64,000 nucleotides of DNA from NCBI GenBank assembly GCA_963725045.1, contig CAVRWY010000014.1:305-64304 (forward strand). Direction: 5' to 3'. Position numbers and translations under genes: made by a program. The stretch is from an uncultured Gemmatimonadales bacterium (GTDB lineage Bacteria; ARS69). The stretch's first letter is position 1, and the number at the start of each line of letters is the position of its first letter. This document shows positions 5,573 through 49,299 of the stretch, one piece after another. A model generated the notes under the pieces. It saw only the letters and a program-made list of their open reading frames with translations, searched no databases and was not told where the DNA came from.

Positions 5573-5883
5573 AAGGAACGCGACGGACTCGCCCCCGCAG
5601 ACTTGCGCTCATGCGGTACCGCGAACTGTGCTCGCGAGCACGCGCGTGATTCCCTGCCGGCAAGCCGGCTCCGGATTCCCCTCGGCCGCCGTTGCTGCTC
5701 GGCGCCCAGAAGAGATTGAAGGCGCCTGCGCTGCGCTGACGCGTCTCGAGGGGAACCCGGAGCCGGACCGGCAGGGACACCACGTCGGAATTCGCTCGCT
5801 TGGTGATTGCCGGACGCCGGCGAGACCGCCAGGCGACCCGATCGCATTCACTCGAGCGGCGTCAGTGCAACGCAGGCGCGCGC

Positions 5884-6117
5884 TTCGATGCGCCTCGGAT
5901 TCCCAGTGTCTCGAGGCGAACTGGCGTACCGGAGGCGCACCGGCGGTCGCCGCCCAGAGTCCCGGTACCTTTCGGCGAGCCTGCGTACCACAGACGTAGA
6001 TCTTGTTCTCCACGAAGCGAAAAGCGCGAGCCGAAAGGCTCCGGGAGGCTGGGCAAGAGGCGAGCCGCGGGCGCGCCGAGGAACGTATGTGAGACGACGA
6101 GATACTGGGAATCCGAG
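5884..6117. repeat. MITE-like ~230-bp repeat, copy 1, bounded by ~25-bp terminal inverted repeats (GCCTCGGATTCCCAGTGTCTCGAGGC)
   Basis: 5891-5917 gcctcggattcccagtgtctcgaggcg and its inverted partner at 6100-6118 (actgggaatccgaggctc). The interior is near-identical to 30760-30985 in the opposite orientation. Intergenic, between the TPR gene and xdhC. Confidence 0.7.
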
Positions 6118-6184
6118 GCTCATGGAGTCGCCCTTCCCCAGACCCGGCGTCCGCCCGATAATGGCGAGAGAGAAGGAGCGTCCC

Positions 6185-12472: not shown

Positions 12473-12548
12473 TGGTGGAGCTGAGGGGGATCGAACCCCT
12501 GACCCCTTGACTGCCAGTCAAGTGCTCTCCCATCTGAGCTACAGCCCC
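12473..12548 (-). tRNA. tRNA-Ala (anticodon GGC), CCA encoded
   Basis: Reverse complement GGGGCTGTAGCTCAGATGGGAGAGCACTTGACTGGCAGTCAAGGGGTCAGGGGTTCGATCCCCCTCAGCTCCACCA. Cloverleaf folds, G3:U70 Ala identity pair is present, and the anticodon loop is CTGGCAG. Confidence 0.85.
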
Positions 12549-12668: not shown

Positions 12669-12752
12669 GCCGGAGTGGTGAAACTGGTAGACGCAGCGGA
12701 CTCAAAATCCGCCGAACTTCGGTTCGTGCCGGTTCGATTCCGGCCTCCGGCA
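12669..12752 (+). tRNA. tRNA-Leu (anticodon CAA), long variable arm, CCA not encoded
   Basis: GCCGGAGTGGTGAAACTGGTAGACGCAGCGGACTCAAAATCCGCCGAACTTCGGTTCGTGCCGGTTCGATTCCGGCCTCCGGCA. Acceptor stem GCCGGAG/CTCCGGC; anticodon loop CTCAAAA. Confidence 0.8.
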
Positions 12753-18419: not shown

Positions 18420-18860
18420 ATGTCCGATCCCACTTCTCCCGCCGATTCCGCGCGCGTCGCGACTCCTCCCTCGACCCTCCTGCGCCACATCGTGTTCTCC
18501 GGCGTCCTGTGGGTGACCTACGTCATCTATTGGCGCATCGTGTTCGGCCGCGGGATCGGTGCCGAAGCGCGCCTTTCCGTCGTGATCTTGGGGCTTTTCG
18601 TCATCCTTCAGCTTCTCTTGACGCTCGCCTGGATCGCGCACAATCGGAACCTCTCGCGAGTGCACGTCGGACGCCGCCGTGAGCGGCCCGCCGCCGCGTA
18701 CACGGTGACCGAGGATTTCCTCGGGCGTGCCTTGGCGCCGTATCCGCCGTCCGTGGACCTCACCCGGGCCGCCGTGGTGACCGTGCGCGTCGATGGGGAC
18801 GTGAAGCGCTTCGAAGCCGGCCTCCCGCTCGGCGAAGCCCGCGCCGCGTCCGGGAACTGA
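18420..18860 (+). CDS. PgaD-like small two-TM protein (putative PNAG synthase accessory subunit)
   Basis: Two TM helices (LLRHIVFSGVLWVTYVIYWRIVFG / LSVVILGLFVILQLLLTLAWIAHNRN) then a ~60-aa cytoplasmic tail. Ends 1 nt before the pgaC-like start. Architecture, not sequence identity, supports the call. Confidence 0.4.
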   Translation: MSDPTSPADSARVATPPSTLLRHIVFSGVLWVTYVIYWRIVFGRGIGAEARLSVVILGLFVILQLLLTLAWIAHNRNLSRVHVGRRRERPAAAYTVTEDFLGRALAPYPPSVDLTRAAVVTVRVDGDVKRFEAGLPLGEARAASGN

Positions 18861-18861
18861 A

Positions 18862-20118
18862 GTGGACGTCGTTTCATTCCTGGATTGGTTTCAGCATCTT
18901 CCGTTTTACAAGGGTTGGCTCGCGTTCTTCGCGTGGTATCCCATGCTCACAGGACTCATGTGGATCCTGACGTCGCTGCTGTACTCCTGGCGTCGCGAGC
19001 CGAAGATTCCCCTGGATGTCACCCTGCAAGAGAATCCGCCGTTCGTGACCGTGCTGGTGCCCGCTTACTGCGAAGCACTCCATATCGGCGCGACGATCGA
19101 GTCACTTCTCACCATCGACTATCCCGCGTTCGAGATTCTCGTCGTGGACGACGCCTCCACCGACGACACGCTGCACCAGCTGCATCCGTACGTCGCGGCG
19201 GGGAAGATTCGTCTGGTTCGCAAGACCGCGAACGAAGGCAAGGCGATGGCGGTGAACGACGCGTTGCTCTGCGCGCGGGGTGAGATCGTGCTGATCATGG
19301 ATGCGGATGCGCGTCCCGATCGCGAAATTCTGCGCCATCTGGTGCCGCATTTCAGCTCGCCGCGCGTCGGCGGCGTGACCGGGAATCCGCGCGTGCTGAA
19401 TCGCGGCAAGTTGCTCGGCCGGCTGCAGGCGATCGAGTTCACGTCGATCGTCTCGCTGCAGAAGCGCGCGCAGCGCGTGTGGGGGAGGATTCTCACGGTG
19501 TCGGGGGTGGTCGGTGCGTTCCACAAGGATGCGCTCATGGACGTCGGGATGTTCAGCCCCGACATGGCCACGGAAGACATCGACGTGAGCTGGAAGCTGC
19601 AGCTGCGGCATTGGGACATCCGCTACGAGCCGCGCGCGGTGGTGTGGATGCGCGTTCCCGAGCGGATGCGCGATCTGTGGAAGCAGCGCCGTCGCTGGTC
19701 GTTGGGGCTCGCGCAGGTGCTCCGCCGGCACGGGAAGGAAGCCCTCAAGTGGAAGAGCCGCCGCTTCTGGCCGGTCGTGGCGGAGTCGGTGACGTCGATC
19801 TTCTGGGGATACAGCTTCGTGATTCTCACCACGATCTGGATCGTGTCCTACGCGGTCGGATATCCGCCGGTCGGCGCCAGTCCCATTCCGAACTGGTGGG
19901 GCATGATGATGGCGACGGTCTGCCTCGGCCAGCTCCTGACCGGAGTGCTGCTCGATCGCCGCTACGACCAGGAGCTCGGGCGCTCGTATCCGATCGCGAT
20001 CTTCTATCCGCTCATCTACTGGATGTTGCTCGCGCTGGTGACGTTCCGGTCGACGCCCGCGGGCTTCCTGCGCAGCCCCGAACGAAAGGGAACGCGGTGG
20101 AAATCGCGGCGCGACTGA
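18862..20118 (+). CDS. pgaC: GT2 poly-beta-1,6-N-acetylglucosamine synthase-like (PgaC/IcaA family)
   Basis: VTVLVPAYCE…ILVVDDASTDDT…IMDADA…GNPRV…TEDIDVSWKLQLRHW…QRRRWSLG (QxxRW) flanked by TM helices. Confidence 0.8.
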   Translation: MDVVSFLDWFQHLPFYKGWLAFFAWYPMLTGLMWILTSLLYSWRREPKIPLDVTLQENPPFVTVLVPAYCEALHIGATIESLLTIDYPAFEILVVDDASTDDTLHQLHPYVAAGKIRLVRKTANEGKAMAVNDALLCARGEIVLIMDADARPDREILRHLVPHFSSPRVGGVTGNPRVLNRGKLLGRLQAIEFTSIVSLQKRAQRVWGRILTVSGVVGAFHKDALMDVGMFSPDMATEDIDVSWKLQLRHWDIRYEPRAVVWMRVPERMRDLWKQRRRWSLGLAQVLRRHGKEALKWKSRRFWPVVAESVTSIFWGYSFVILTTIWIVSYAVGYPPVGASPIPNWWGMMMATVCLGQLLTGVLLDRRYDQELGRSYPIAIFYPLIYWMLLALVTFRSTPAGFLRSPERKGTRWKSRRD

Positions 20119-20189
20119 TCGCGGGCATGCTCGCGGCGATGCGTGCTGGGGCTTGGCGTGCGGCGGGCGCGCGCCCGTGCCCCGTGCGT

Positions 20190-21824
20190 ATGCTGGTGCC
20201 TGTCGCCGGCGTCGTCGTGCTCGGCCTCGCGCTGGCTGCGCCGGTTCTCGCGGTGACCGAGCTGGAGCAGGCCAAGGCGCTCGAGCTGCTCGCGGAAGCG
20301 CGCGTGATGGCCGGCGAAGATCGGCACGGACGCGCCATCGCCTGCGCGCTGGCCGCGCTGGAAATCGATCCTTCGCTGGAAAACGAGGCCGCGCTCTTGC
20401 TGGCGAATCAATACACCTGGAGCGATCGCGCGCGCGAAGCGATCCCCTGGTACGAAAAACATCTGGCCCTTCATCCCGAGGATCTCGAGGCGCGCCGCGG
20501 GCTCGCCCGCGCGTACTCCTGGGACGATCGGCTGGAGGACGCGGGGCGCGAGTACGCGGTGCTGGCCCAGGAGAATCCGCAAGACGTGGAAGCGCTGACC
20601 GGCCTGGCGCGTTTGGAGGCGTGGCGCGGGAACGACGCCGAGGCTGCGTCGCGTGCGCAGGAGATTCTGGCGATCGATCCCGAGAACGCAGAAGCGCGCC
20701 GCATCTTGGCCGGCGCGCAGAACCGGCGCGGGCGTCACCGCGAAGCCGAGGAGCTGTACGAGGAGATCCTCACCGCCGATCCGACCGACGTCGATGCGCG
20801 CCTGGGCCGCGCACGGGCGCGGTACTGGATGGGAGAGGGAAACCAGGCGCTGGAGGACATCGAAGGGATCGACACGCGCGAAGCGCGCGAGCTGCGGGCC
20901 GCGATCGAAGAGCCGATGCCCGGTTCGGGGACGTTCGGCATGTCGTGGTTCACCGACGTCGACGAGCAGGATCAGGACACGGTGTGGGGTCGCCTCGATC
21001 TCGTTCCCGACCCACAATGGAGCGTATCCGGGGAATTGCGCCGAGACGAGACCCGCGAGCCGGGAAGCGGAGATGTCACCTTGCTTCGCTTCACCGGCGG
21101 AGGCTCGCACCGCTTCAATCGATCGTGGGATGTCCATGCGTTCGCGACGGCCGGGGAGATCGACTCCGACCAGGACGTGCCCGCCGGAGAGGGGCTGACC
21201 ATTGCGGAGGACGACGTGGAGGACACGCTTTTCATGTGGGACGCATGGACGACGTGGACTCCGGCGGACTGGACGCGTTTCGATCTCGGATTCGCACGCG
21301 TGCCGATCGAGACGCCGAAAGCGCTCGCCCGCGGGATCACGATCGACATCGCCAGCCTCGGCGCACGGCGCCGCCTGAACGATCGCTTCGTGCTCGCGGC
21401 GTCCGGTGCGTTCGGCGATTACTCGGACGATAACGAGCGCATCACCGGATCGCTCCTGCTGGAGACGAAGCCGGTGCTGCACTGGCCGGTTCTCCTCACC
21501 GTGGGTGGGCAGATGTTCTCGTTCGACCGCTCGGTCGACCACGGCTACTACAATCCCGAGGACTACGACGTGATCTACGCGCAGATCGACGTGGACACCG
21601 ACGTGACTTCATGGCTGTACGTCGACGCGTTCGGCCGGATCTCGTCGGAGCGTGAAAACCACGGCGATCGCTTCGACGTGGGAGCCGCCGGCGCGGACCT
21701 CACGTTTCGCGTGCATGACCACATCGACCTGGTCGTCTTCGGAAGGACGTCCACGTCGCGCTTCGAGACGAGTGGTGGGTACGAGCGCGAGGGTTGGGGG
21801 TTCTTCGTCCGCGTTTCGCCGTGA
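20190..21824 (+). CDS. PgaA-like exopolysaccharide export protein: signal peptide + TPR repeats + C-terminal beta-barrel porin domain
   Basis: MLVPVAGVVVLGLALAAPVLA signal peptide, then TPR-like repeats (…EAIPWYEKHLALHPEDLEARRGLARAYSWDDRLEDAGREYAVLAQENPQDVEALTGLARLEAW…). The C-terminal half is rich in aromatic/alternating residues and ends …GWGFFVRVSP. Alternative upstream GTG at 20097. Confidence 0.55.
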   Translation: MLVPVAGVVVLGLALAAPVLAVTELEQAKALELLAEARVMAGEDRHGRAIACALAALEIDPSLENEAALLLANQYTWSDRAREAIPWYEKHLALHPEDLEARRGLARAYSWDDRLEDAGREYAVLAQENPQDVEALTGLARLEAWRGNDAEAASRAQEILAIDPENAEARRILAGAQNRRGRHREAEELYEEILTADPTDVDARLGRARARYWMGEGNQALEDIEGIDTREARELRAAIEEPMPGSGTFGMSWFTDVDEQDQDTVWGRLDLVPDPQWSVSGELRRDETREPGSGDVTLLRFTGGGSHRFNRSWDVHAFATAGEIDSDQDVPAGEGLTIAEDDVEDTLFMWDAWTTWTPADWTRFDLGFARVPIETPKALARGITIDIASLGARRRLNDRFVLAASGAFGDYSDDNERITGSLLLETKPVLHWPVLLTVGGQMFSFDRSVDHGYYNPEDYDVIYAQIDVDTDVTSWLYVDAFGRISSERENHGDRFDVGAAGADLTFRVHDHIDLVVFGRTSTSRFETSGGYEREGWGFFVRVSP

Positions 21825-22825
21825 GCCGAGGCCGGCCGCGGTTCCCTCGCATCGCCGCGGGGGTCGCGATCGCGCTCGCCGCTCTCGCCCTGTTCGTGTG
21901 GATCCGCTGGGAGAGACGCGGCGGCCCCTCGTCCGAGAGCGATCTGGATCTTCCTGCGCTCTTCTCCACGTCGCGGGATCGCGCGTTGAGCGAAGCGGCG
22001 CTCCAGCCCGGCGTTCCGGTGCTCTGCTATCACTACTTTCGTCCGGGGTTCAACGCCGAGCGTCTGGCCCGCGTGCTCGGCGCGGTTCTCTTGAGCCTTC
22101 CCACGATTCCCGACAAAGACTTTTGGTCGGTCACCGCTCCCGAGTTCGAGCGACAGATGCGCTACCTGCGCGACGAAGGGTATCGCACCGCGACGCTGGA
22201 AGAACTCGCGCTACACATGGAGGGGCGCGCGACACTTCCCCCGCGCAGCGTGGTGATCACCATCGACGACGGGGACGAGTCGATCGCGGAGATCGCCGCC
22301 CCCATCTTGAGAGAGTACGGACACCGAGCCACGCTCTTCATGCTCACCGGACATGCCGGGGAACGGAACTGGAACGACATCGACTTTCTGGACTGGAGCA
22401 CGCTGCGCGCGTTGGAAACCTCGGGAGCGCTGCGCGTCGAGAGCCACTCCCATCGCATGCACACCAAGGTGCGCCGGCACGGCGTGACGACGCCCCGCTT
22501 TCTGGTGGAATGCCGCGACAACCGGGGACGCGTTTCCGCAGATTCCCCGCTGGGACGGGACTTGGGCTCGAGCCGCGCGGCCATCCGTCGCGAGCTGCAA
22601 CACGATGCTGAGTACCTCTCCTGGCCGTTCGGCTTCGGAGATCAAGACACGGACTCGCTGGCCGCGTCGCTGGGATTTCGCGGCATCTTCACGCTTCGCC
22701 CGGTGCGCAGCATCGCTCCGGGAGATTCCGTGGAGTGGGATCCACGCCGCACGCTCGGTCGATTTCCCATCACGGCGCGCACCACGTTTCGCGAGTTTCG
22801 CCGTCTCGTCGCTGCGCGGACCTAG
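21821..22825 (+). CDS. polysaccharide deacetylase (CE4/NodB domain) with N-terminal TM anchor (PgaB/IcaB-like)
   Basis: GTG start overlaps the pgaA-like stop (GTGA). TM segment IAAGVAIALAALALFVWI; CE4 motifs VVITIDDGDES…HSHSHRMH. Only ~334 aa, so it lacks the PgaB C-terminal domain. Confidence 0.7.
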   Translation: MSRGRPRFPRIAAGVAIALAALALFVWIRWERRGGPSSESDLDLPALFSTSRDRALSEAALQPGVPVLCYHYFRPGFNAERLARVLGAVLLSLPTIPDKDFWSVTAPEFERQMRYLRDEGYRTATLEELALHMEGRATLPPRSVVITIDDGDESIAEIAAPILREYGHRATLFMLTGHAGERNWNDIDFLDWSTLRALETSGALRVESHSHRMHTKVRRHGVTTPRFLVECRDNRGRVSADSPLGRDLGSSRAAIRRELQHDAEYLSWPFGFGDQDTDSLAASLGFRGIFTLRPVRSIAPGDSVEWDPRRTLGRFPITARTTFREFRRLVAART

Positions 22826-28352: not shown

Positions 28353-28985
28353 ATGCCCTTCGCGTCCAACGGTGCCGTGCTGCTCTTGGAAGTTTGCTGC
28401 GATCCGCGTGCGCGCTCGATCGTGTCCGCGGACGTCGAAGCGCATTTGTCCCAGGCGAAAGTCCTGATCGAAGCCGTGGAGCCCGGACGCTCGTGGACTG
28501 CGGCGAGCGGGGCGGCGTTCGCGGGTCGCATGCTGTTCGACGACGCGGGGCAGGCGTTTCCGTTCGTGTACGCGCTGCGCACCAGCATGCGCGCCGACCC
28601 CAAGAAGCCGCCCCTCGTCGTGCTCGCGGGACTCGGACGGGGCGACGAGCTCGCCGCCGACCGTCTCGCCACGGAAGCGTTTCGCGGGCTCGGAAAGCGC
28701 CGGAATTGCTGGACCGGCGCGCTCACCTCGCAGCCGGGATCCACGCGCGTGCTCTCCGCTCTCTGTCGTACGATCGATACGATCGAGCGGGGCTGGACGG
28801 ACGCGCAATGGGAAGCCATCTTTCGGCGGGACCGCAACGTCACGCTGCAGCAGATCGGGGACGATCTCGGCATCGCCTACCAGAACGTGAGCAAGCGCCT
28901 CATCGCGGCGAAGTACGCACTTCACCGCGAGATTCTGGACGCGGCGAGCCACGTCTTCGCTACGCCGGCGCCGGAGTTCGTGTAA
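28353..28985 (+). CDS. hypothetical protein with C-terminal helix-turn-helix-like segment
   Basis: 210-codon ORF; …[33 protein letters not shown] resembles a sigma-70 region-4/HTH segment. No RBS seen. Confidence 0.35.
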
Positions 28986-30096: not shown

Positions 30097-30759
30097 CCGC
30101 TCGCCGCGGCGTCTCGCCTCGTGCTCGAAACGCGCGTTCCGGCCCGCCGGCACCCGGCCCGCGCCCGATCGTAGGAACGCGAAGCGACCGCGATCGGAGC
30201 CCTCTCGCGTCCCCGATTGGGGACCTTTCCCCAGCGTTCGTGCGCAAAAGGCCGCGCCGCGCGCTCATCTTGCGACCTGGTGAGACGGCTTCCCCCGAAA
30301 ACCCTTCGCTGGCTCTCGCCGATCGCTGCAAATCCTGACTGCGACCCGCTGGCATGTCCTCTGCATGATGCTCTGGTTGCGCGGGCGATGTCTTCGTCGG
30401 GAACGAAACACCGACTCGGACCTGCAACCTAGTTGATCGCTCCCTCGATGGCTCGCACGCGCATGCGGAACCTCACGGCTGCGCCGCGAGCTCCGCCCGG
30501 TCCCGATTCAGTCTCCTGCGATGTCACGTGATTCGCGGGCGCTCGGCCTGACGACCCTGGGATTCCCGTGGTGACTCGGCGCACGGCGTCAATGCGGGGG
30601 ACTTTCTTCGCGAAGGGGGCGGCAACGCCCCCTTTGCTCGTTGGAGCCGGCCGCGATCTCCGAGAGACAGGCTGCGCGAGCGAAGCTCGGACGTGATGCC
30701 CGCCGGTTCTCCGGCTCGGGTCCCCTCGGCGGCCGTTGCTGCGTTGGCGCTCGCATGAA

Positions 30760-30985
30760 GGCCTCGGATCCCGATCTCTCGCTGCGCATACGTTCCTCGG
30801 CGCGCCGGCGGCTCGCCTCGTGCCCAGATTCCCGGAGCCTTTCGGCTCGCGCTTTTCGCTTCGTGGAGAAGGAGATCTGCGTCGGCGTTACGCAGGCTCG
30901 CCGAAAGGTACCGGGACTCTGGGCGGCGACCGCCGGTGCGCCTCCGGTACGCCAGCTCGCCTCGAGACACTGGGAATCCGAGGCC
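30760..30985. repeat. MITE-like ~230-bp repeat, copy 2 (inverted relative to copy 1)
   Basis: Reverse complement of 30760-30985 aligns almost base-for-base with 5891-6117, including the terminal inverted repeat ctcgagacactgggaatccgaggc at 30960-30984. Lies in the non-coding leader upstream of the BMC locus. Confidence 0.7.
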
Positions 30986-31182
30986 ATTGAAGAGCGCCAG
31001 CGCCGCGCTCGACGGCGCTCGAGGGGAACCGCCAAGCGGGACCGACGAGGGACAGCAACGCATGAGGTCGCTCGCAGTGCCGGATGCTTCGAGGCTACGA
31101 TCGTCGGCGAGCATCCACTCGCTGTGGAACGATCGGATGATGCCCGGGCGATCTCGGCAGAGCGCCGCCCCAGCGATTGACA

Positions 31183-31216
31183 CAGGCCGCCGATCGAGCA
31201 ATTCTCCGGGCCTTCC
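31183..31216 (+). promoter_or_regulatory. candidate sigma70-type promoter of the BMC operon
   Basis: TTGACA (31183-31188), 17 nt, then AATTCT. Followed by a GAAGGGCGG Shine-Dalgarno and ATG 31237 of the first BMC-H gene. By eye only. Confidence 0.25.
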
Positions 31217-31236
31217 TTCGAGGCGAAGGGCGGGTG

Positions 31237-31510
31237 ATGGAGGGAGAGGCTCTCGGGTCTGGTCGAAACGCGCGGATTCGTCGGCTTGGCCGAGGCATCC
31301 GACGCGATGGTCAAAGCGGCGCGGGTCACCATCACCAAGTACGAGCGCATCGGATCGGCGTACGTGACGACGCTGGTGCGCGGCGAGGTGGGCGCGGTGA
31401 ACGCCGCGGTGGCCGCGGGAGCCGATGCCGCACGACGTGTCGGCGAGCTGGTGACGAGCCACGTCATTCCCAGTCCGCATCCTTCGCTGGAAGACATTTT
31501 CTTGAAGTGA
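31237..31510 (+). CDS. BMC-H hexameric shell protein (PduA/EutM family), 1-nt insertion near codon 8
   Basis: MEGEALG in one frame, then [74 protein letters not shown] in the next frame. An extra base falls in gggtctggtc (expected gggctggtc). Confidence 0.75.
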
Positions 31511-31523
31511 CGGGAGGTGGTCG

Positions 31524-31827
31524 ATGAGCGAAGCCTTGGGAATGATCGAGACGCGCGGTTTCGTGGCGCTCGTCGAGGCGTCCGACGCGATGGTCAAAGC
31601 CGCGAACGTGACGCTCGTGGGATACGAGAAGATCGGCGGGGGATACGTGACCGCGATCGTTCGCGGAGACGTGGCCGCCGTGAAGGCCGCGACCGATGCG
31701 GGATCCGCGGCGGCGAACAAGGTCGGAGAGCTCGGTCTCCGTTCACGTCATTCCGCGTCCCCACGGCAACGTGGAGAAGGTCCTCCCCGTCGGACGCGCC
31801 GAGAAGGCGGAAGCCGCCCGAACCTGA
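31524..31827 (+). CDS. BMC-H hexameric shell protein (second paralog), 1-nt insertion near 31738
   Basis: [70 protein letters not shown], then a frame change. The corrected frame gives [30 protein letters not shown] and a stop at 31825-31827. Confidence 0.75.
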
Positions 31828-31846
31828 TCCGCTCGAGGAGGGCCCG

Positions 31847-32155
31847 ATGATCCTCGGGCGCATCGCCGGAACCGTCGTCGCCACGCGCAAGGACGAACGA
31901 CTCGGCGGATTCAAGCTTCAAATCGTGGAGACCGTCGGCCTCGACCTGAAGCCGACCGGCGCCTTCACCATCGCGGTCGACGTGGTCGGCGCCGGGGACG
32001 GCGAGATCGTGCTGGTGGCGTCGGGATCGTCCGCGCGTCTCACCTCCGCGACCAAGGACAAGCCCGTCGACGCGGTGATCCTCGCGATCGTCGACACGGT
32101 GGAGGCCGAAGGCCGCATCCGCTACACGAAGGCCGCGGCCGAGGCCGCGCGTTGA
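31847..32155 (+). CDS. BMC-P pentameric vertex protein (EutN/PduN/CcmL family), paralog 1
   Basis: [65 protein letters not shown]…; GAGGAGGG lies upstream of the ATG. Confidence 0.8.
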
Positions 32156-33618
32156 TCGCGCGGAGCCCCGGCGTGACCCTCGACGAGTCCCGCGTCGAAA
32201 CGCTCGTCGAGCGCGTGCTCCGCCGGCTCGAGGGAGACGCCGCACACTCCGGAATCGCCCGCCCGGCAGTTTCCGCGAGCGCGCGCGGCACGGGCCCGGT
32301 GTTCGAGACTCCCGACGACGCCGCACGCGAAGCGCAGCGCGCGTTTCGCGACTTGGGCGAGACTTCGCTCGAAGTTCGCGATCGCATGATCGCGGCGATT
32401 CGCCGCGCGGTCGAAGAGCACGCGCCGGAGCTTGCGCGCCTCGCCGTGGAAGAGACCGGCCTCGGTCGCGTCGACGACAAGATCAAGAAGAACCTCCTCG
32501 TCGGCCGCAAGACGCCGGGCACGGAAGATCTGGCCCCCACCGCGCGCTCGGGCGATCACGGCCTCACGCTCGAAGAGCGCGCCCCGTACGGCGTGATCCT
32601 CTCGGTGACGCCGTCCACGAATCCGTCCGAGACGGTGATCAACAACGGCATCGGCATGCTCGCCGGCGGCAACGCCGTGATCTTCGCGCCGCATCCGTCC
32701 GCGGCGCGCGTGTCGCTGCGCGCGATCGAAATTCTCGAGCGCGCCGCGCGCGAGGCCGGCGGTCCCGCGAACGTGTTCACCACGATCGCGAAGCCCTCCA
32801 TCGAAGCGACGCAGGCGCTCATGCGCCACGACGCGGTGCGTCTCCTGGTGGTGACCGGCGGCGCCGGCGTGGTGAAGGAAGCGATGTCGGTCGGCAAGCG
32901 GGCGATCACCGCGGGGCCGGGGAATCCTCCGGTCGTGGTCGACGCGACCGCGGATCTTGGACCGCGCCGCGCGCGGCATCGTGGCCGGCGCTTCGCTCGA
33001 CAACAACATCGTGTGCACCGACGAGAAGGAAGTGATCGCGGTGGCCAGCATCGTGGGCGAGCTCATGACGCGCCTGGAGCGCGCCGGAGCGTTTCGCCTG
33101 CGCGGCCGCGAGCTCGATTTGGTGCGCAAGGCAGTGCTCCACGAGGATCGCGGGCCGCGGCGGCGCAGCATTCCGAACAAGGAGCTGATCGGCAAGGACG
33201 CGGGCGTCATCTTGGAGGCGGCGGGAGTTTCCGGACCGAGCACGACGCGGCTTCTCGTCGCCGAGGTCGACGACGGCCATCCGTTCCTGTGGACCGAGCT
33301 CATGATGCCGGTGATCGGCGTGGCCTGCGGCCCGCGACGTCGACGCCGCGATCGACTTCGCGCAAGGACGTGGAAGGCGGCAATCGTCACACCGCCGCCA
33401 TGTACTCGCACGACGTGACCAAGCTCTCGCGCATGGCGCGCACCATCGACTGCTCCATCTTCGTGAAGAACGGGCCCACGTTCAACGGGCTCGGCGAAGG
33501 GGGAGAGGGTTTCACCAGCTACACGATCGCGAGTCCCACCGGCGAAGGCATGACCACTGCGCGCAGCTTCACGCGGTTTCGCCGCTGCACGCTCGTCGAC
33601 TCCTTCCGCATCGTTTGA
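32152..33618 (+). CDS. CoA-acylating aldehyde dehydrogenase (PduP/EutE family) with N-terminal encapsulation-peptide-like helix; >=3 frameshifts
   Basis: N-terminus LDESRVETLVERVLRRLEG (amphipathic) plus a low-complexity linker, then ALDH core (…ETGLGRVDDKIKKN…SVTPSTNPSETVINNGIGMLAGGNAVIFAPHP…). The middle (DRAARGIVAGASLDNNIVCTDEKEVIAVASIV…) and the tail (KDVEGGNRHTAAMYSHDVTKLSRMARTIDCSIFVKNGPTFNGLGEGGEGFTS) are in other frames. Confidence 0.7.
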   Translation: MIARSPGVTLDESRVETLVERVLRRLEGDAAHSGIARPAVSASARGTGPVFETPDDAAREAQRAFRDLGETSLEVRDRMIAAIRRAVEEHAPELARLAVEETGLGRVDDKIKKNLLVGRKTPGTEDLAPTARSGDHGLTLEERAPYGVILSVTPSTNPSETVINNGIGMLAGGNAVIFAPHPSAARVSLRAIEILERAAREAGGPANVFTTIAKPSIEATQALMRHDAVRLLVVTGGAGVVKEAMSVGKRAITAGPGNPPVVVDATADLGPRRARHRGRRFARQQHRVHRREGSDRGGQHRGRAHDAPGARRSVSPARPRARFGAQGSAPRGSRAAAAQHSEQGADRQGRGRHLGGGGSFRTEHDAASRRRGRRRPSVPVDRAHDAGDRRGLRPATSTPRSTSRKDVEGGNRHTAAMYSHDVTKLSRMARTIDCSIFVKNGPTFNGLGEGGEGFTSYTIASPTGEGMTTARSFTRFRRCTLVDSFRIV

Positions 33619-33630
33619 GGCGCCCGCATT

Positions 33631-34242
33631 GTGGAATGGAACGCCGATTCGCTGGGTCTTCTGGAGCTCGGCTCGATCGCCGCGGGAGTGCGCGCCGCCG
33701 ACGAAGTCGTGAAGGCCGCGCGGGTGGATCTCGTCGAAGCGATCCCGATCTCGACCGGAAAGTTCCTGGTGATTTTCGCCGGCGGCGTCGCTGAAGTGGA
33801 AGCGTCGCTCGAAGCGGGAACGCGGGTCGCGCAGGACGCGATCGTGGATACGCTGCGTCTCGCGCGGGTGCATCGCGACGTGCCGCCGGCGATCGCGCGC
33901 CCGCGCGGTGCGCGGGCGATTGCGGCGGCGCTCGGAATCGTGGAGACCACGACGGTGGCGGCGGCGATCGAGGGTGCGGACGCGGCGGCGAAGGCCGCGG
34001 AGGTCCAGCTCCTGGAGATTGCGCCGGGACGAGGAATCGGCGGGCGCGGGTTCTTCACGCTGACCGGCGACGTCGGCTCGGTGCAGGCGGCGTGCGACGC
34101 CGCGCGCGTTCTCATCGACCGGCGCGCCGCGCACATTCGGACGGAAGTTCTCTCGGGACCGCACGCGCTGGTGCGCGATCGTGTGGGGCGCATGCTGATG
34201 GGACACTTCGAGCGGCTCGCGTCGCGCGCGGAGGATGCGTGA
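33631..34242 (+). CDS. BMC-T shell protein (tandem BMC domains)
   Basis: Two PF00936-like halves: LGLLELGSIAAGVRAADEVVKAARVDLVEAIPISTGKFLVIFAGGVAEVEASLEAG… and ALGIVETTTVAAAIEGADAAAKAAEVQLLEIAPGRGIGGRGFFTLTGDVGSVQAACDAA…. Confidence 0.7.
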   Translation: MEWNADSLGLLELGSIAAGVRAADEVVKAARVDLVEAIPISTGKFLVIFAGGVAEVEASLEAGTRVAQDAIVDTLRLARVHRDVPPAIARPRGARAIAAALGIVETTTVAAAIEGADAAAKAAEVQLLEIAPGRGIGGRGFFTLTGDVGSVQAACDAARVLIDRRAAHIRTEVLSGPHALVRDRVGRMLMGHFERLASRAEDA

Positions 34243-34521
34243 ACTTCGCACGGGTCATCGGGAGCATTGTCGCAACCGCGAAGGACGAGAGCTTGAGCGG
34301 TGTGCTCCTGCGCGTCGTGCAGCCGTGCGACGAAGCGGGGCATCCTCGGGGCGAGCCCTTCGTCGCCATCGATCCGCTGCAGACCCGCGAAGGAGATCTG
34401 GTCTTCGTGGTGCGAGCCCGCGAAGCGGCAAAGGCGTTTGCCGTCGAAATTCGCGCCGGTCGACGCCGCGATCGTGGGACTCGTCGACGGCATCGACCGC
34501 GGCGACGAGTCGCAGTCGTGA
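34239..34521 (+). CDS. BMC-P vertex protein, paralog 2 (frameshift near 34440)
   Basis: GTG overlaps the BMC-T stop. VNFARVIGSIVATAKDESLSGVLLRVVQPCDEAGHPRGEPFVAIDPLQTREGDLVFVVRAREAAKAF, then the C-terminus …FAPVDAAIVGLVDGIDRGDESQS in the adjacent frame. Confidence 0.65.
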
Positions 34522-34799
34522 AGATCGCGCGCGTGATCGGCCGGGTCTGGGCGACGTCGAAGGATGCGTCGCTCGAGGGGCGGACGATTCTCCTGCTTCG
34601 CCCACTGGATCTGGAAGGCCGTGCGGTCGGTGAAGCCTACCTCGCCGTCGACGCTGCGCAGGCGGGAGCGGGGGAGCGCGTGCTCGTCGTCGACGAAGGG
34701 GGCTCGGCCGGGCAGGTCTTGGGTCTCGCCGAACCTCCCATCCGCACCGTCGTCGTCGGCGTGGTCGACGAGGTGCACCGCGCCACGGAACGCACATGA
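34518..34799 (+). CDS. BMC-P vertex protein, paralog 3
   Basis: GTG overlaps the paralog-2 stop (GTGA). VKIARVIGRVWATSKDASLEGRTILLLRPLDLEGRAVGEAYLAVDAAQAGAGERVLVVDEGGSAGQVLG…. Confidence 0.7.
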   Translation: MKIARVIGRVWATSKDASLEGRTILLLRPLDLEGRAVGEAYLAVDAAQAGAGERVLVVDEGGSAGQVLGLAEPPIRTVVVGVVDEVHRATERT

Positions 34800-35565
34800 A
34801 GCCGCTTCACGAGATCAAGCGCGACGTCGCGCGCGTGTGCCGGCGGCTCGACGAGCGCGAGTACGTCGGCGGGCGCGACGGCAACGTCTCCGTGCGTCTC
34901 ACCGCGAACACGATCCTGATCACGCCGGCGGGCATTCGCAAAGGGGACGTGGAGGAGCGCGATCTTCTCGTGGTGGACGCGAACGGCGTGAAGATCGAAG
35001 GGCGCGGCCATCCGTCGACGGAGACGGGGATGCACTGCCACGTATATCGCCGCCGCACCGACGTCCGTGCGGTGGTGCACGCGCATCCTCCGGTCGCGAC
35101 CGGGTTCGCCGCCGCGGGACGCGGGCTCACCGGATGCGTGCTTCCCGAGGTCGTGGTGGGTTTGGGCGAGGTCCCGGTGGCGCCGTACGCGCTTCCCGGG
35201 ACGGACGAAGTGGCGTCGGCGATCGATCCGTTCCTGGAGCGCCACGACGCGCTGCTCCTGGGAAACCACGGCGCGGTCGCGTTCGGCGAAGACGTGGATG
35301 CCGCGCACCAACGGATGGAGACGCTGGAGCAATCGGCGCGAATTCTCTTGGTGGCGCGGTTGCTCGGCGGTGCGCATCCGCTGGGGGAAGACGAGGTGCG
35401 CCGCTTGATCGAAGCGCGGGCGCCGCTACGGAGTGCGCGCGGACCTCGCCGGATGCATCCTGGGCGACACGTTCCCGCCGCGAGCTTCGGAGCCGGCTGC
35501 GGCGCCGGATGATGACGCCCTCGTCGAGCGCATCGCCGAGCGCGTCCGGCGGCTGCTTGGTTAGC
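34796..35565 (+). CDS. class II aldolase/adducin-family enzyme (fuculose/rhamnulose-phosphate aldolase-like) with C-terminal encapsulation-peptide-like helix; frameshift ~35440
   Basis: …GNVSVRL…LITPAG…HAHPP…GNHGAVAFGEDVDAAHQRMETLE… class II aldolase motifs. The terminal segment in the adjacent frame, …GDTFPPRASEPAAAPDDDALVERIAERVRRLLG, ends at TAG 35563-35565. Confidence 0.65.
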
Positions 35566-35822
35566 TAGGCCGCCTTCAGGCGATTCACCGCCAGCGCGAT
35601 GCGGCTCTTCTTGCGATTCGCGCGCCGGCGCGGAATGACACCCTTCTTCACCGCACGGTCGAGCTCGCTGGAGAGAGTGCGCATCGCAGCGTCGGCTTCT
35701 TCGCCGGACGCGGCGATCAAGGTCTTGTTCAGCGTCTTGATCGTGCTCTTGACCTGACGGTTGCGCGCGTTCTGCTTCTTCGCGGTGCGCATGCGCTTGA
35801 AGTTCGACTTGTGACGAGGCAT
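35565..35822 (-). CDS. rpsT: 30S ribosomal protein S20
   Basis: MPRHKSNFKRMRTAKKQNARNRQVKSTIKTLNKTLIAA…AVNRLKAA. Confidence 0.85.
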   Translation of the reverse strand: MPRHKSNFKRMRTAKKQNARNRQVKSTIKTLNKTLIAASGEEADAAMRTLSSELDRAVKKGVIPRRRANRKKSRIALAVNRLKAA

Positions 35823-49222: not shown

Positions 49223-49299
49223 GGGCGATTAGCTCAGCTGGTTAGAGTGCCTGCTTGACATGCAGGAGGTCACTGGTTCGAGTCCAGTATCGCCCACCA
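49223..49299 (+). tRNA. tRNA-Val (anticodon GAC), CCA encoded
   Basis: GGGCGATTAGCTCAGCTGGTTAGAGTGCCTGCTTGACATGCAGGAGGTCACTGGTTCGAGTCCAGTATCGCCCACCA; anticodon loop TTGACAT. Confidence 0.85.

Follow-up and report, generated by a model that had tools for sequence, protein, structure and literature searches.

The bacterial microcompartment (BMC) loci most relevant here are those of the HO and MIC7 types in the catalogue of Sutter et al. 2021 (PMC8217296, Supplementary Data 2), a family whose native function the catalogue's authors call enigmatic. MIC7 ('metabolosome with incomplete core' 7) comprises six loci from Candidatus (Ca.) Eisenbacteria and Ca. Latescibacteria. It is described with a standard and a specialised hexamer (BMC-H), a triplet of vertex pentamers (BMC-P) and, as sole enzyme, an aldehyde dehydrogenase (AldDh) with an N-terminal encapsulation peptide (EP); its single-layer trimers (BMC-Ts) either carry a pore cysteine and lie next to PduS or lack the cysteine in loci without PduS (PMC8217296). 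BMC-P triplets are more widespread, occurring in the PVM, HO, ACI, SPU, FRAG, MIC4, MIC7 and MUF2 types, and the cargo of HO, ACI and MUF2 is also described with encapsulation peptides (PMC8217296). HO-type shells, from Haliangium ochraceum, are the main structural and engineering model for microcompartments. Here we describe an eight-gene operon at positions 31237–35564 of a 64-kb stretch of contig CAVRWY010000014.1 (assembly GCA_963725045.1), hereafter the window. The best explanation overall, and quite probably the right one, is that of a functional, small catabolic BMC operon of the HO/MIC7 family in an uncultivated Eisenbacteria-related bacterium, its frameshifts being errors of the assembly.

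The operon consists of tightly packed + strand genes for, in order, BMC-H, BMC-H, BMC-P, AldDh, BMC-T, BMC-P, BMC-P and a class II aldolase, here called H1, H2, P1, AldDh, T, P2, P3 and aldolase (Table 1). At 68% G+C, raw lists of open reading frames (ORFs) from the window are crowded with spurious frames. The genes were delimited by three-frame reading of 31200–35600 and codon-level repair, and Pfam matches were scored on hand-repaired translations from which seven single-base insertions had been taken out. All eight genes then lie far above the Pfam gathering scores for the expected families (PF00936, PF03319, PF00171 and PF00596). These matches bear out the first-pass annotation of the stretch, which had listed eight consecutive + strand genes covering all classes of shell protein, three of them vertex paralogues of the EutN/PduN family, with an acylating AldDh and a class II aldolase. 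Clustering of PF00936 BMC-H and PF03319 BMC-P genes with a PF00171 aldehyde dehydrogenase is what marks a metabolosome locus, and this is a real and probably functional BMC operon. Its last base is 35564 rather than 35565, as first given. The gaps or overlaps of 0–4 nt originally reported hold for three junctions, which are 4-nt overlaps (T/P2 and P2/P3, GTGA; P3/aldolase, ATGA), but the remaining four are gaps of 12–19 nt, with 12 nt between AldDh and T. With six shell genes and two EP-tagged enzymes within one operon, the locus is a compact version of its kind.

Two related sequences are of particular use for judging the gene products: L001 (Logan SRR19175045), an independently assembled 1.2-kb contig with 97% identity to the window, and L002 (GCA_975092465.1), the closest relative with a complete operon. 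H2 is a standard, basal hexamer with the motifs KAAN and PRPH, and its intact 100-aa orthologue in L001 is 100% identical. H1 is a 'specialised' hexamer, with KAAR and PSPH where the basal type has KAAN and PRPH; intact 90-aa orthologues occur in L001, L002 and others. The three pentamers are mutually divergent paralogues (34–45% identity) with positional orthologues in the relatives, that of P2 standing at the same position in all of them, and the best solved relative of P1 is the Haliangium HO shell pentamer 5v74 (2.1e-25). T is a single-layer, PduT-like tandem-domain trimer of 203 aa, whose best matches in the Protein Data Bank (PDB) are 3nwg (1.4e-36) and PduT 3n79 (3.3e-29), with HO-T1 5dih at 8.5e-23. 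It has no [4Fe-4S] pore cysteine: a serine stands in the motif PISTGKF, in contrast to the PduS-linked, pore-cysteine T proteins of two fuller loci, L065 and L029. Searching with the relatives' proteins (tblastn) returned no further BMC-domain gene within the window, and no double-stacking trimer (BMC-Tdp), of the kind that MIC7 and HO have as a satellite, lies in the 64 kb. We also note a C-terminal extension of about 20 aa on T (34150–34239; RVGRMLMGHFERLA..., hydrophobic moment (muH) 0.71) that the T proteins of L065 and L029 do not have.

Both enzymes carry terminal helices of the kind expected of cargo. AldDh scores 625 bits against a cut-off of 403 with NF011927 (EutE-type acylating AldDh), the sole NCBIfam model above threshold, and aligns end to end with Rhodopseudomonas palustris PduP 5jfl (1.2e-125), including the catalytic cysteine, which lies within NNIVCTDEKE. 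Because the reading frame from TTG 32152 is closed by a stop in L001, the likely start is GTG 32173. The resulting N-terminus, MTLDESRVETLVERVLRRLEG, forms an amphipathic helix (muH 0.82) that is conserved among the relatives and is a predicted encapsulation peptide. The aldolase ends in a similar arrangement, in which a conserved RYGVRE-GLAxC segment is followed by a variable Pro/Ala-rich linker and a C-terminal helix, DDALVERIAERVRRLLG. The helix behind the variable linker is conserved in homologues, and a homologue search returned about 60 clusters with 58–78% identity that share this tail. In an AlphaFold2 model of the L002 orthologue, the linker (residues 212–230) has a pLDDT below 50 and is followed by a helix at 230–245. 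This C-terminal helix, too, is a predicted encapsulation peptide. The residues that align with the zinc ligands (H95, H97, H158) and the catalytic glutamate (E76) of FucA do not vary among 30 homologues, and the stretches GNxS and PSTE, which align with its phosphate-binding motifs, are conserved as well.

In the deposited sequence, five of the eight genes are interrupted by seven coding frameshifts (three in AldDh, one each in H1, H2, P2 and the aldolase), every one a +1 shift caused by a single-base insertion. Taken at face value, this would make the locus a decaying pseudogene cluster whose organelle is no longer made, a reading that draws on the deposited aldolase being the truncated form and on the reductive history of the lineage, which has lost PduS and the T pore cysteine and has no phosphotransacylase (PTAC). 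The lesions themselves do not look like decay, since nonsense mutations, deletions and larger indels are absent, and 14 out of 14 homology-verified shifts in 26.7–35.6 kb (tblastn with L002 proteins) are +1 insertions. The same lesions break an amylase gene and the isocitrate/isopropylmalate dehydrogenase gene Iso_dh, with three verified shifts each. Selection has remained purifying on the sequence either side of each shift: after removal of the seven bases, dN/dS against L002 is 0.03 for H2, 0.12 for H1, 0.13 for AldDh, 0.20 for P2, 0.21 for the aldolase and 0.23 for P3, values on a par with those of murJ (0.14) and DAHP synthase (0.09). The 97%-identical contig L001, from another sequencing run, has H1, H2 and P1 intact and carries neither of the insertions that fall within its length (T at 31258, G at 31734).

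The lesions also come in patches between clean stretches. Compared with L002, glk, hyp210 and the run of eight genes that begins with murJ and ends with DAHP synthase (36.0–44.5 kb) are intact, and a codon-usage Viterbi path shows no intragenic frame change from that stretch on to ~50.4 kb. The same path places further broken patches at 1.1–3.5 kb, 50.4–52.5 kb and 60.1–64 kb, where, by Viterbi and reading only, uppP-, CDF transporter-, pheS-, pheT-, dxs-, recN-, pgsA- and trpE-like genes appear to be broken. Frameshift counts from the Viterbi path are unreliable at overlapping gene boundaries, and the homology-verified shifts were used in their place. Because the shifts are insertion-only and patchy and verifiably strike at least one metabolic housekeeping gene (Iso_dh), we regard them with considerable confidence as an assembly artefact rather than gene decay, and a pseudogene cluster as highly improbable. 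The clustering of frame changes points to uneven consensus quality in the deposited assembly, and the frameshifts should not be taken as biology.

Comparing the operon with MIC7 reveals likenesses in host phylum, shell and cargo. One standard (H2) and one specialised (H1) hexamer accompany a BMC-P triplet, AldDh has a predicted N-terminal EP, T lacks the pore cysteine in a locus without a PduS gene, and neither PTAC nor alcohol dehydrogenase is encoded in the locus. The order P (101 aa)-AldDh-Ts of the catalogued Eisenbacteria locus (tags A2W00_06480 and 06470), where P and Ts are two tags apart, fits P1-AldDh-T. The differences lie in the aldolase and in T. Whereas AldDh is the only gene besides the shell in MIC7, an EP-tagged PF00596 aldolase ends the operon here and in the Eisenbacteria and Latescibacterota loci that we retrieved, and T, with its extension, has 203 aa here compared with 182 aa in the catalogued locus.

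The likeness to HO is one of gene order and sequence. The succession H-P-AldDh-Ts plus P-P-aldolase is that of the main HO locus joined to its satellite. In HO type II the two are fused, and the BMC-P triplet, BMC-Ts, N-EP AldDh and pfam00596 aldolase likewise stand together in the main locus without PTAC. P1 has its closest solved structure in the HO pentamer 5v74, as stated above. However, HO combines a single BMC-H with two double-stacking BMC-Tdp and is mostly myxobacterial, whereas here there are two BMC-H and no Tdp, and T resembles the D. hafniense/PduT type (1e-36) more than HO-T1 (8.5e-23). The identities of Hoch_5813 and Hoch_5814 are in part presumed. On this comparison of sequences and gene order we assign the locus to the HO/MIC7 family, as a member that has an aldolase and lacks PduS. 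The family itself is already catalogued, and the locus adds a further member to it.

The relatives of the operon show how loci of this kind become reduced. In sequence and gene order, the nearest loci lie in genomes named 'MAG: bacterium' (MAG, metagenome-assembled genome), in Eisenbacteria and in Latescibacterota. Exactly the arrangement H-H-P-AldDh-T-P-P-aldolase, with all genes intact, is found in L002/L003 (GCA_975092465.1; 78% aldolase identity), L004 (GCA_041393395.1; 61%) and L005 (isolate STL-ARS1; 61%), in each case followed by rpsT(-), murJ, uvrC, ogt, xerD, scpA, scpB and rluB. Three further loci, L085, L086 and L087, have the same synteny with one added gene of 413–422 aa between AldDh and T. 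It encodes a degenerate PduS homologue in which the N-terminal FMN/NADH GxGxxG region is missing and the Cys clusters, SLBB and RnfC_N persist, and the T proteins of these loci already have a serine at the PduT pore-cysteine position. At the other end of the series, L065, on a contig labelled Ca. Eisenbacteria, reads PTAC-H-H-P-AldDh-PduS-T-P-P-aldolase with a full PduS and a pore cysteine in T. In the lineage of the window the PduS-like gene is gone and only the 12-nt gap between AldDh and T is left. The degenerate homologue appears to mark a halfway point on the way to losing the PduS/PduT redox module, and the series, in which PduS is first full, then degenerate and finally absent, and the pore cysteine is missing from the degenerate stage onwards, illustrates the reduction. 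Because at least seven genomes and many metagenome contigs preserve the compact two-enzyme operon, the aldolase–AldDh pair appears to be the conserved cargo core.

Fuller loci share the same core. MIC4 (KSB1, Calditrichaeota and others) and the fuller Eisenbacteria and Latescibacterota loci have a homologous aldolase (43–46% identity), AldDh, a BMC-P triplet and a PduT-type T. Unlike the operon here, they add PTAC, acetate kinase and an intact PduS with a Cys-pore T; in Latescibacterota loci, PTAC lies upstream and the aldolase is directly followed by acetate kinase. The KSB1 locus L029 is the fullest, with DeoR, an FGGY kinase, P-P-P, an RpiB-like gene, PduS, T, PTAC, AldDh, H, the aldolase and acetate kinase, and none of its DeoR, FGGY kinase and RpiB-like isomerase genes has a counterpart here.

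The host was placed by its ribosomal protein S1, which shows 79% identity to one protein named Ca. Eiseniibacteriota and ~70% to five that bear the name Ca. Eisenbacteria; at 80%, two MAGs labelled Gemmatimonadetes come up as well. Going by these best hits, and not by a phylogeny, the host would be Eisenbacteria-related.

The locus had originally been filed as PVM-like, with the triple BMC-P as a hallmark of the PVM metabolosome, so that it would represent a fucose/rhamnose organelle of the kind found in Planctomycetes and Verrucomicrobia. The resemblance is real at the level of composition and enzyme logic: two BMC-H and three BMC-P accompany a class II aldolase that would make an aldehyde and an acylating AldDh that would use it, and the catalogue itself infers 'carbohydrate degradation' for other aldolase-bearing types from the PVM aldolase (PMC8217296). 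However, PVM is limited to Planctomycetes and Verrucomicrobia, its shell being described as two BMC-H and three BMC-P with BMC-T unlisted, and PVM-like is a Firmicutes type in which AldDh, PTAC and BMC-P all resemble those of GRM5 (PMC8217296). The host here is Eisenbacteria-related and not a Firmicute, T is PduT-like, and the nearest loci belong to the three groups named above. The triplet occurs in seven further types and is thus no hallmark, and its pentamer clades are purple, grey and orange in PVM as opposed to green, grey and orange in MIC7. MUF2 and PVM share an enzyme set according to the catalogue, whose gene table names PvmG/PvmN (PMC8217296). The aldolase, moreover, falls below the FucA models (115, 105 and 81 bits against cut-offs of 264, 250 and 400) and the RhaD model (51 against 170). 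Neither PTAC nor acetate kinase lies in the 64 kb. PVM loci presumably carry both, and PVM-like has PTAC. A PVM or PVM-like identity is largely refuted by these points and has next to no probability left, which corrects the filing; the functional analogy to PVM is reasonable, in that an aldehyde would be trapped as acyl-CoA and the fuller relatives add PTAC, acetate kinase, FGGY kinase and DeoR.

ACI loci come close in another respect, as they have a pfam00596 aldolase with a C-terminal EP (50–52% identity over the catalytic domain) beside BMC-H and a BMC-P triplet. ACI is confined to Acidobacteria, in whose loci we find the ACI order aldolase-H-P-P-P, with AldDh on a satellite locus and tagged by a C-terminal EP, and with a hydroxyacid dehydrogenase. 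Here the operon itself includes AldDh, which has a predicted EP at its N-terminus, and no PF00389/PF02826 gene is present.

As a member of the HO/MIC7 family, the operon may work as follows. The six shell genes would supply H2 for the bulk of the facets, H1 and T as specialised tiles and the three pentamer paralogues for the vertices, while the aldolase and AldDh would be packaged via their C-terminal and N-terminal amphipathic helices, respectively. A ketose-1-phosphate, be it L-fuculose-1-phosphate, L-rhamnulose-1-phosphate or another deoxy-ketose phosphate, would enter the lumen and be cleaved by the class II aldolase into dihydroxyacetone phosphate (DHAP) and a short aldehyde. AldDh would convert the aldehyde at once to an acyl-CoA with NAD+ and CoA, so that, as we propose, a toxic or volatile compound would be kept from the cytosol. 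The kinase and isomerase that make the substrate, and the PTAC and acetate kinase steps for CoA recycling and ATP, are missing from this locus, whether lost or encoded in another part of the genome, and the PduS/PduT redox module, too, has been shed by the lineage. Because the fuller relatives carry PTAC, acetate kinase, an FGGY kinase and DeoR, the ancestral role was most likely sugar catabolism with substrate-level phosphorylation.

Several observations weigh against this account. The locus matches neither the MIC7 nor the HO definition exactly, having an aldolase beyond AldDh in the one case and two BMC-H in the other, and the frameshifts stand in the public record, where the deposited aldolase is a truncated 238-aa ORF. 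No PTAC, alcohol dehydrogenase or acetate kinase was found in the 64 kb, nor do the operons of seven relatives have one within 10 kb, which leaves the recycling of lumenal CoA and NAD+ unexplained. The aldolase is below every NCBIfam equivalog cut-off (at best 130 bits against 251) and equally far, at 27–31% identity, from FucA 4c24, DrdA 6btd and YgbL 6voq. What its sequence establishes is the PF00596 superfamily and a DHAP-type active site, and aldolase as opposed to related chemistry is a candidate reading. The fuculose/rhamnulose-phosphate type first assigned to it is not upheld by these values. DrdA is a 5-deoxyribulose-1-phosphate aldolase, and YgbL is decarboxylase-like. With Foldseek, the AlphaFold2 model of the aldolase has Bacillus thuringiensis DrdA 6btd on top (E 1.5e-16), tied with YgbL and FucA. 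Assignment to a single substrate was rejected, as NCBIfam, the PDB sequence search and Foldseek all leave FucA, DrdA and YgbL tied.

The same organelle could accordingly run on other chemistry. A non-fucose substrate such as 5-deoxyribulose-1-phosphate or 5-methylthioribulose-1-phosphate would make it a device for salvaging S-adenosylmethionine by-products, in which acetaldehyde or (methylthio)acetaldehyde is trapped by the EutE-type AldDh; alternatively, the aldolase would condense DHAP with an aldehyde, a role suggested for the SPU5 class II aldolase (PMC11585597). The top rank of DrdA, the restriction of AldDh to the EutE-type NCBIfam model and the setting of the operon in strictly conserved housekeeping synteny, with no sugar-utilisation genes nearby, all agree with such chemistry. 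Identity to DrdA is only 27%, however, no kinase or isomerase of a DHAP shunt lies nearby, and the fullest related locus, L029, couples the aldolase with DeoR and an FGGY sugar kinase and so points to sugar catabolism. We consider other chemistry rather unlikely. A more radical version, which we hold to be less probable still and distinctly unlikely, is a self-sufficient, constitutive 'housekeeping' organelle of two enzymes that has lost PduS, PTAC and the kinase. It would use a non-fucose phospho-ketose, for example 5-deoxyribulose-1-phosphate from the salvage of radical-SAM by-products, and the acyl-CoA would leave through the Cys-less BMC-T pore, so that CoA would not have to be recycled in the lumen. 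Were this so, the enigmatic HO/MIC7 family would gain both a function and a minimal model system.

Table 1. Features of the operon and its surroundings (window positions, unless a related locus is named)
Feature	Position	Strand	Match or remark
H1 (BMC-H 1)	31237-31510	+	PF00936, 5.8e-27
H2 (BMC-H 2)	31524-31827	+	PF00936, 2.5e-31
P1 (BMC-P 1, vertex pentamer paralogue)	31847-32155	+	PF03319, 1.5e-27; intact
AldDh	32173 (or TTG 32152)-33618	+	PF00171, 1.3e-35
T (BMC-T)	33631-34242	+	two PF00936 domains, 3.9e-35; intact
P2 (BMC-P 2)	34239-34521	+	PF03319, 3.8e-26
P3 (BMC-P 3)	34518-34799	+	PF03319, 2.3e-23; intact
Aldolase	34796-35564	+	PF00596, 3.8e-49
Insertion in H1	31258		extra T
Insertion in H2	~31734		extra G
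Insertions in AldDh	~32956, ~33326, ~33363		
Insertion in P2	~34449		extra A
Insertion in aldolase	~35420		
Degenerate PduS homologue, L085	7572-8813		between AldDh and T
Degenerate PduS homologue, L086	7572-8840		between AldDh and T
Degenerate PduS homologue, L087	7590-8843		between AldDh and T
hyp210	28353-28982	+	conserved 210-aa protein; no Pfam family
Gene-free intergenic region	30097-31236 (~1.14 kb)		between Iso_dh and operon; no coding signal (codon-usage Viterbi)
Palindromic repeat, MITE/REP-like	30754-31023 (~270 nt)		self-complementary; inverted copy 5851-6124, 88% identity
Putative sigma-70-type promoter	31177-31205	+	TTGACA 31177-31182, 17-nt spacer, AATTCT 31200-31205
rpsT	35565-35822	-	93% identity to PF01649 gene of L002; directly downstream of aldolase

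The 1.1-kb non-coding stretch reported upstream of the operon stood up to closer analysis, as it has neither a coding signal nor a credible Rfam match. Its description as a leader did not, and there is probably none: a TTGACA box lies upstream of H1 in all seven aligned relatives and in the window is only 60 nt before the H1 ATG. A consensus promoter scanner called nothing upstream of H1; the -10 element is weak, and TTGACA emerged only from the alignment of relatives. The 75 nt at 31160–31234, 95% identical to L002, are the only strongly conserved part of the spacer. Farther upstream, 30209–30750 is 76% identical to L002 and not conserved in L004 and L005, and among the relatives the spacer varies from 320 to 2000 nt. 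No Rfam family reaches the gathering score in 30097–31236, and at E<=1 only a chance-level match to a microRNA (miRNA) precursor appears. We rejected a structured RNA or riboswitch, as this single match is caused by the palindromic repeat. The latter, which resembles miniature inverted-repeat transposable elements (MITE) or repetitive extragenic palindromes (REP), folds into a ~250-nt hairpin (-173 kcal/mol, z = -7.0), is not in Rfam, and occurs in the spacer of L002 but in neither L004 nor L005. Its second copy lies within a 636-nt gap before an xdhC-like gene. A gene in the spacer was likewise rejected: the 239-aa ORF annotated in L002 (L002 5669–6388) is Arg/Pro/Ser-rich, has no Pfam match and resembles the window only where the repeat lies, read on the other strand. 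The public annotation has probably called a spurious gene here. Most likely, to judge from conservation and composition, the stretch is plain intergenic DNA with a repeat element, the promoter being close to H1.

The wider neighbourhood was surveyed by Pfam scans of the larger coding segments predicted beyond the part that L002 covers and by the precomputed Pfam matches of the collinear L002, with 57.8–64 kb and 1.1–3.8 kb read by eye only. All the genes seen were housekeeping genes or unrelated to the operon. Upstream of the operon lie genes for a TPR/PMT protein, XdhC, a sulfatase, glycosyltransferases, a radical-SAM/SPASM enzyme, a PgaA/C/B-like set, YceI, PGI, glucokinase, amylase, hyp210 and Iso_dh. 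Downstream, rpsT flanks the locus, as had been noted, and is followed by murJ, uvrC, ogt, xerD, scpA/B, rluB, DAHP synthase, aroA, cmk, plsC, rpsA, infC, pheST, zapB/A, ymdB, folD, xseA and others. Within this scope, PduL, acetate kinase, Fe-dependent alcohol dehydrogenase (Fe-ADH) and DeoR were not found in the 64 kb, nor was any Pfam-recognisable regulator. Searching with Eisenbacteria PduL and PduS and Latescibacterota acetate kinase (tblastn) gave nothing in the window or in L002–L005, and on this ground we also discarded a PduL remnant in the spacer or elsewhere. The earlier statement that PduL, acetate kinase, a lactaldehyde reductase and a regulator are missing locally agrees with these searches as regards PTAC, acetate kinase and alcohol dehydrogenase. 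In the protein database, a PduL search placed none in the known genomes of the clade among the best 120 matches listed, all of which have at least 57% identity.

The protein hyp210 is encoded 2.2 kb upstream of the operon. Its gene has the amylase gene on one side and the operon on the other in the window, L002, L005, L085, L086 and L087, and is not found near L004. It may be a regulator, given a helix-turn-helix (HTH) signal at residues 158–187 (HTH_10, E 0.0023; Sigma70_r4, E 0.057). We did not adopt this assignment, as the HTH matches are sub-threshold and the protein has no PDB relative. Elsewhere in the window, genes for a PgaC-like GT2, a TPR and PgaA-barrel-like protein and a polysaccharide deacetylase stand in a row at 18859–22813 (+), which suggests a poly-N-acetylglucosamine-type exopolysaccharide operon. 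Three tRNA genes were identified with Rfam at 12476–12548 (-), 12669–12752 (+) and 49223–49296 (+).

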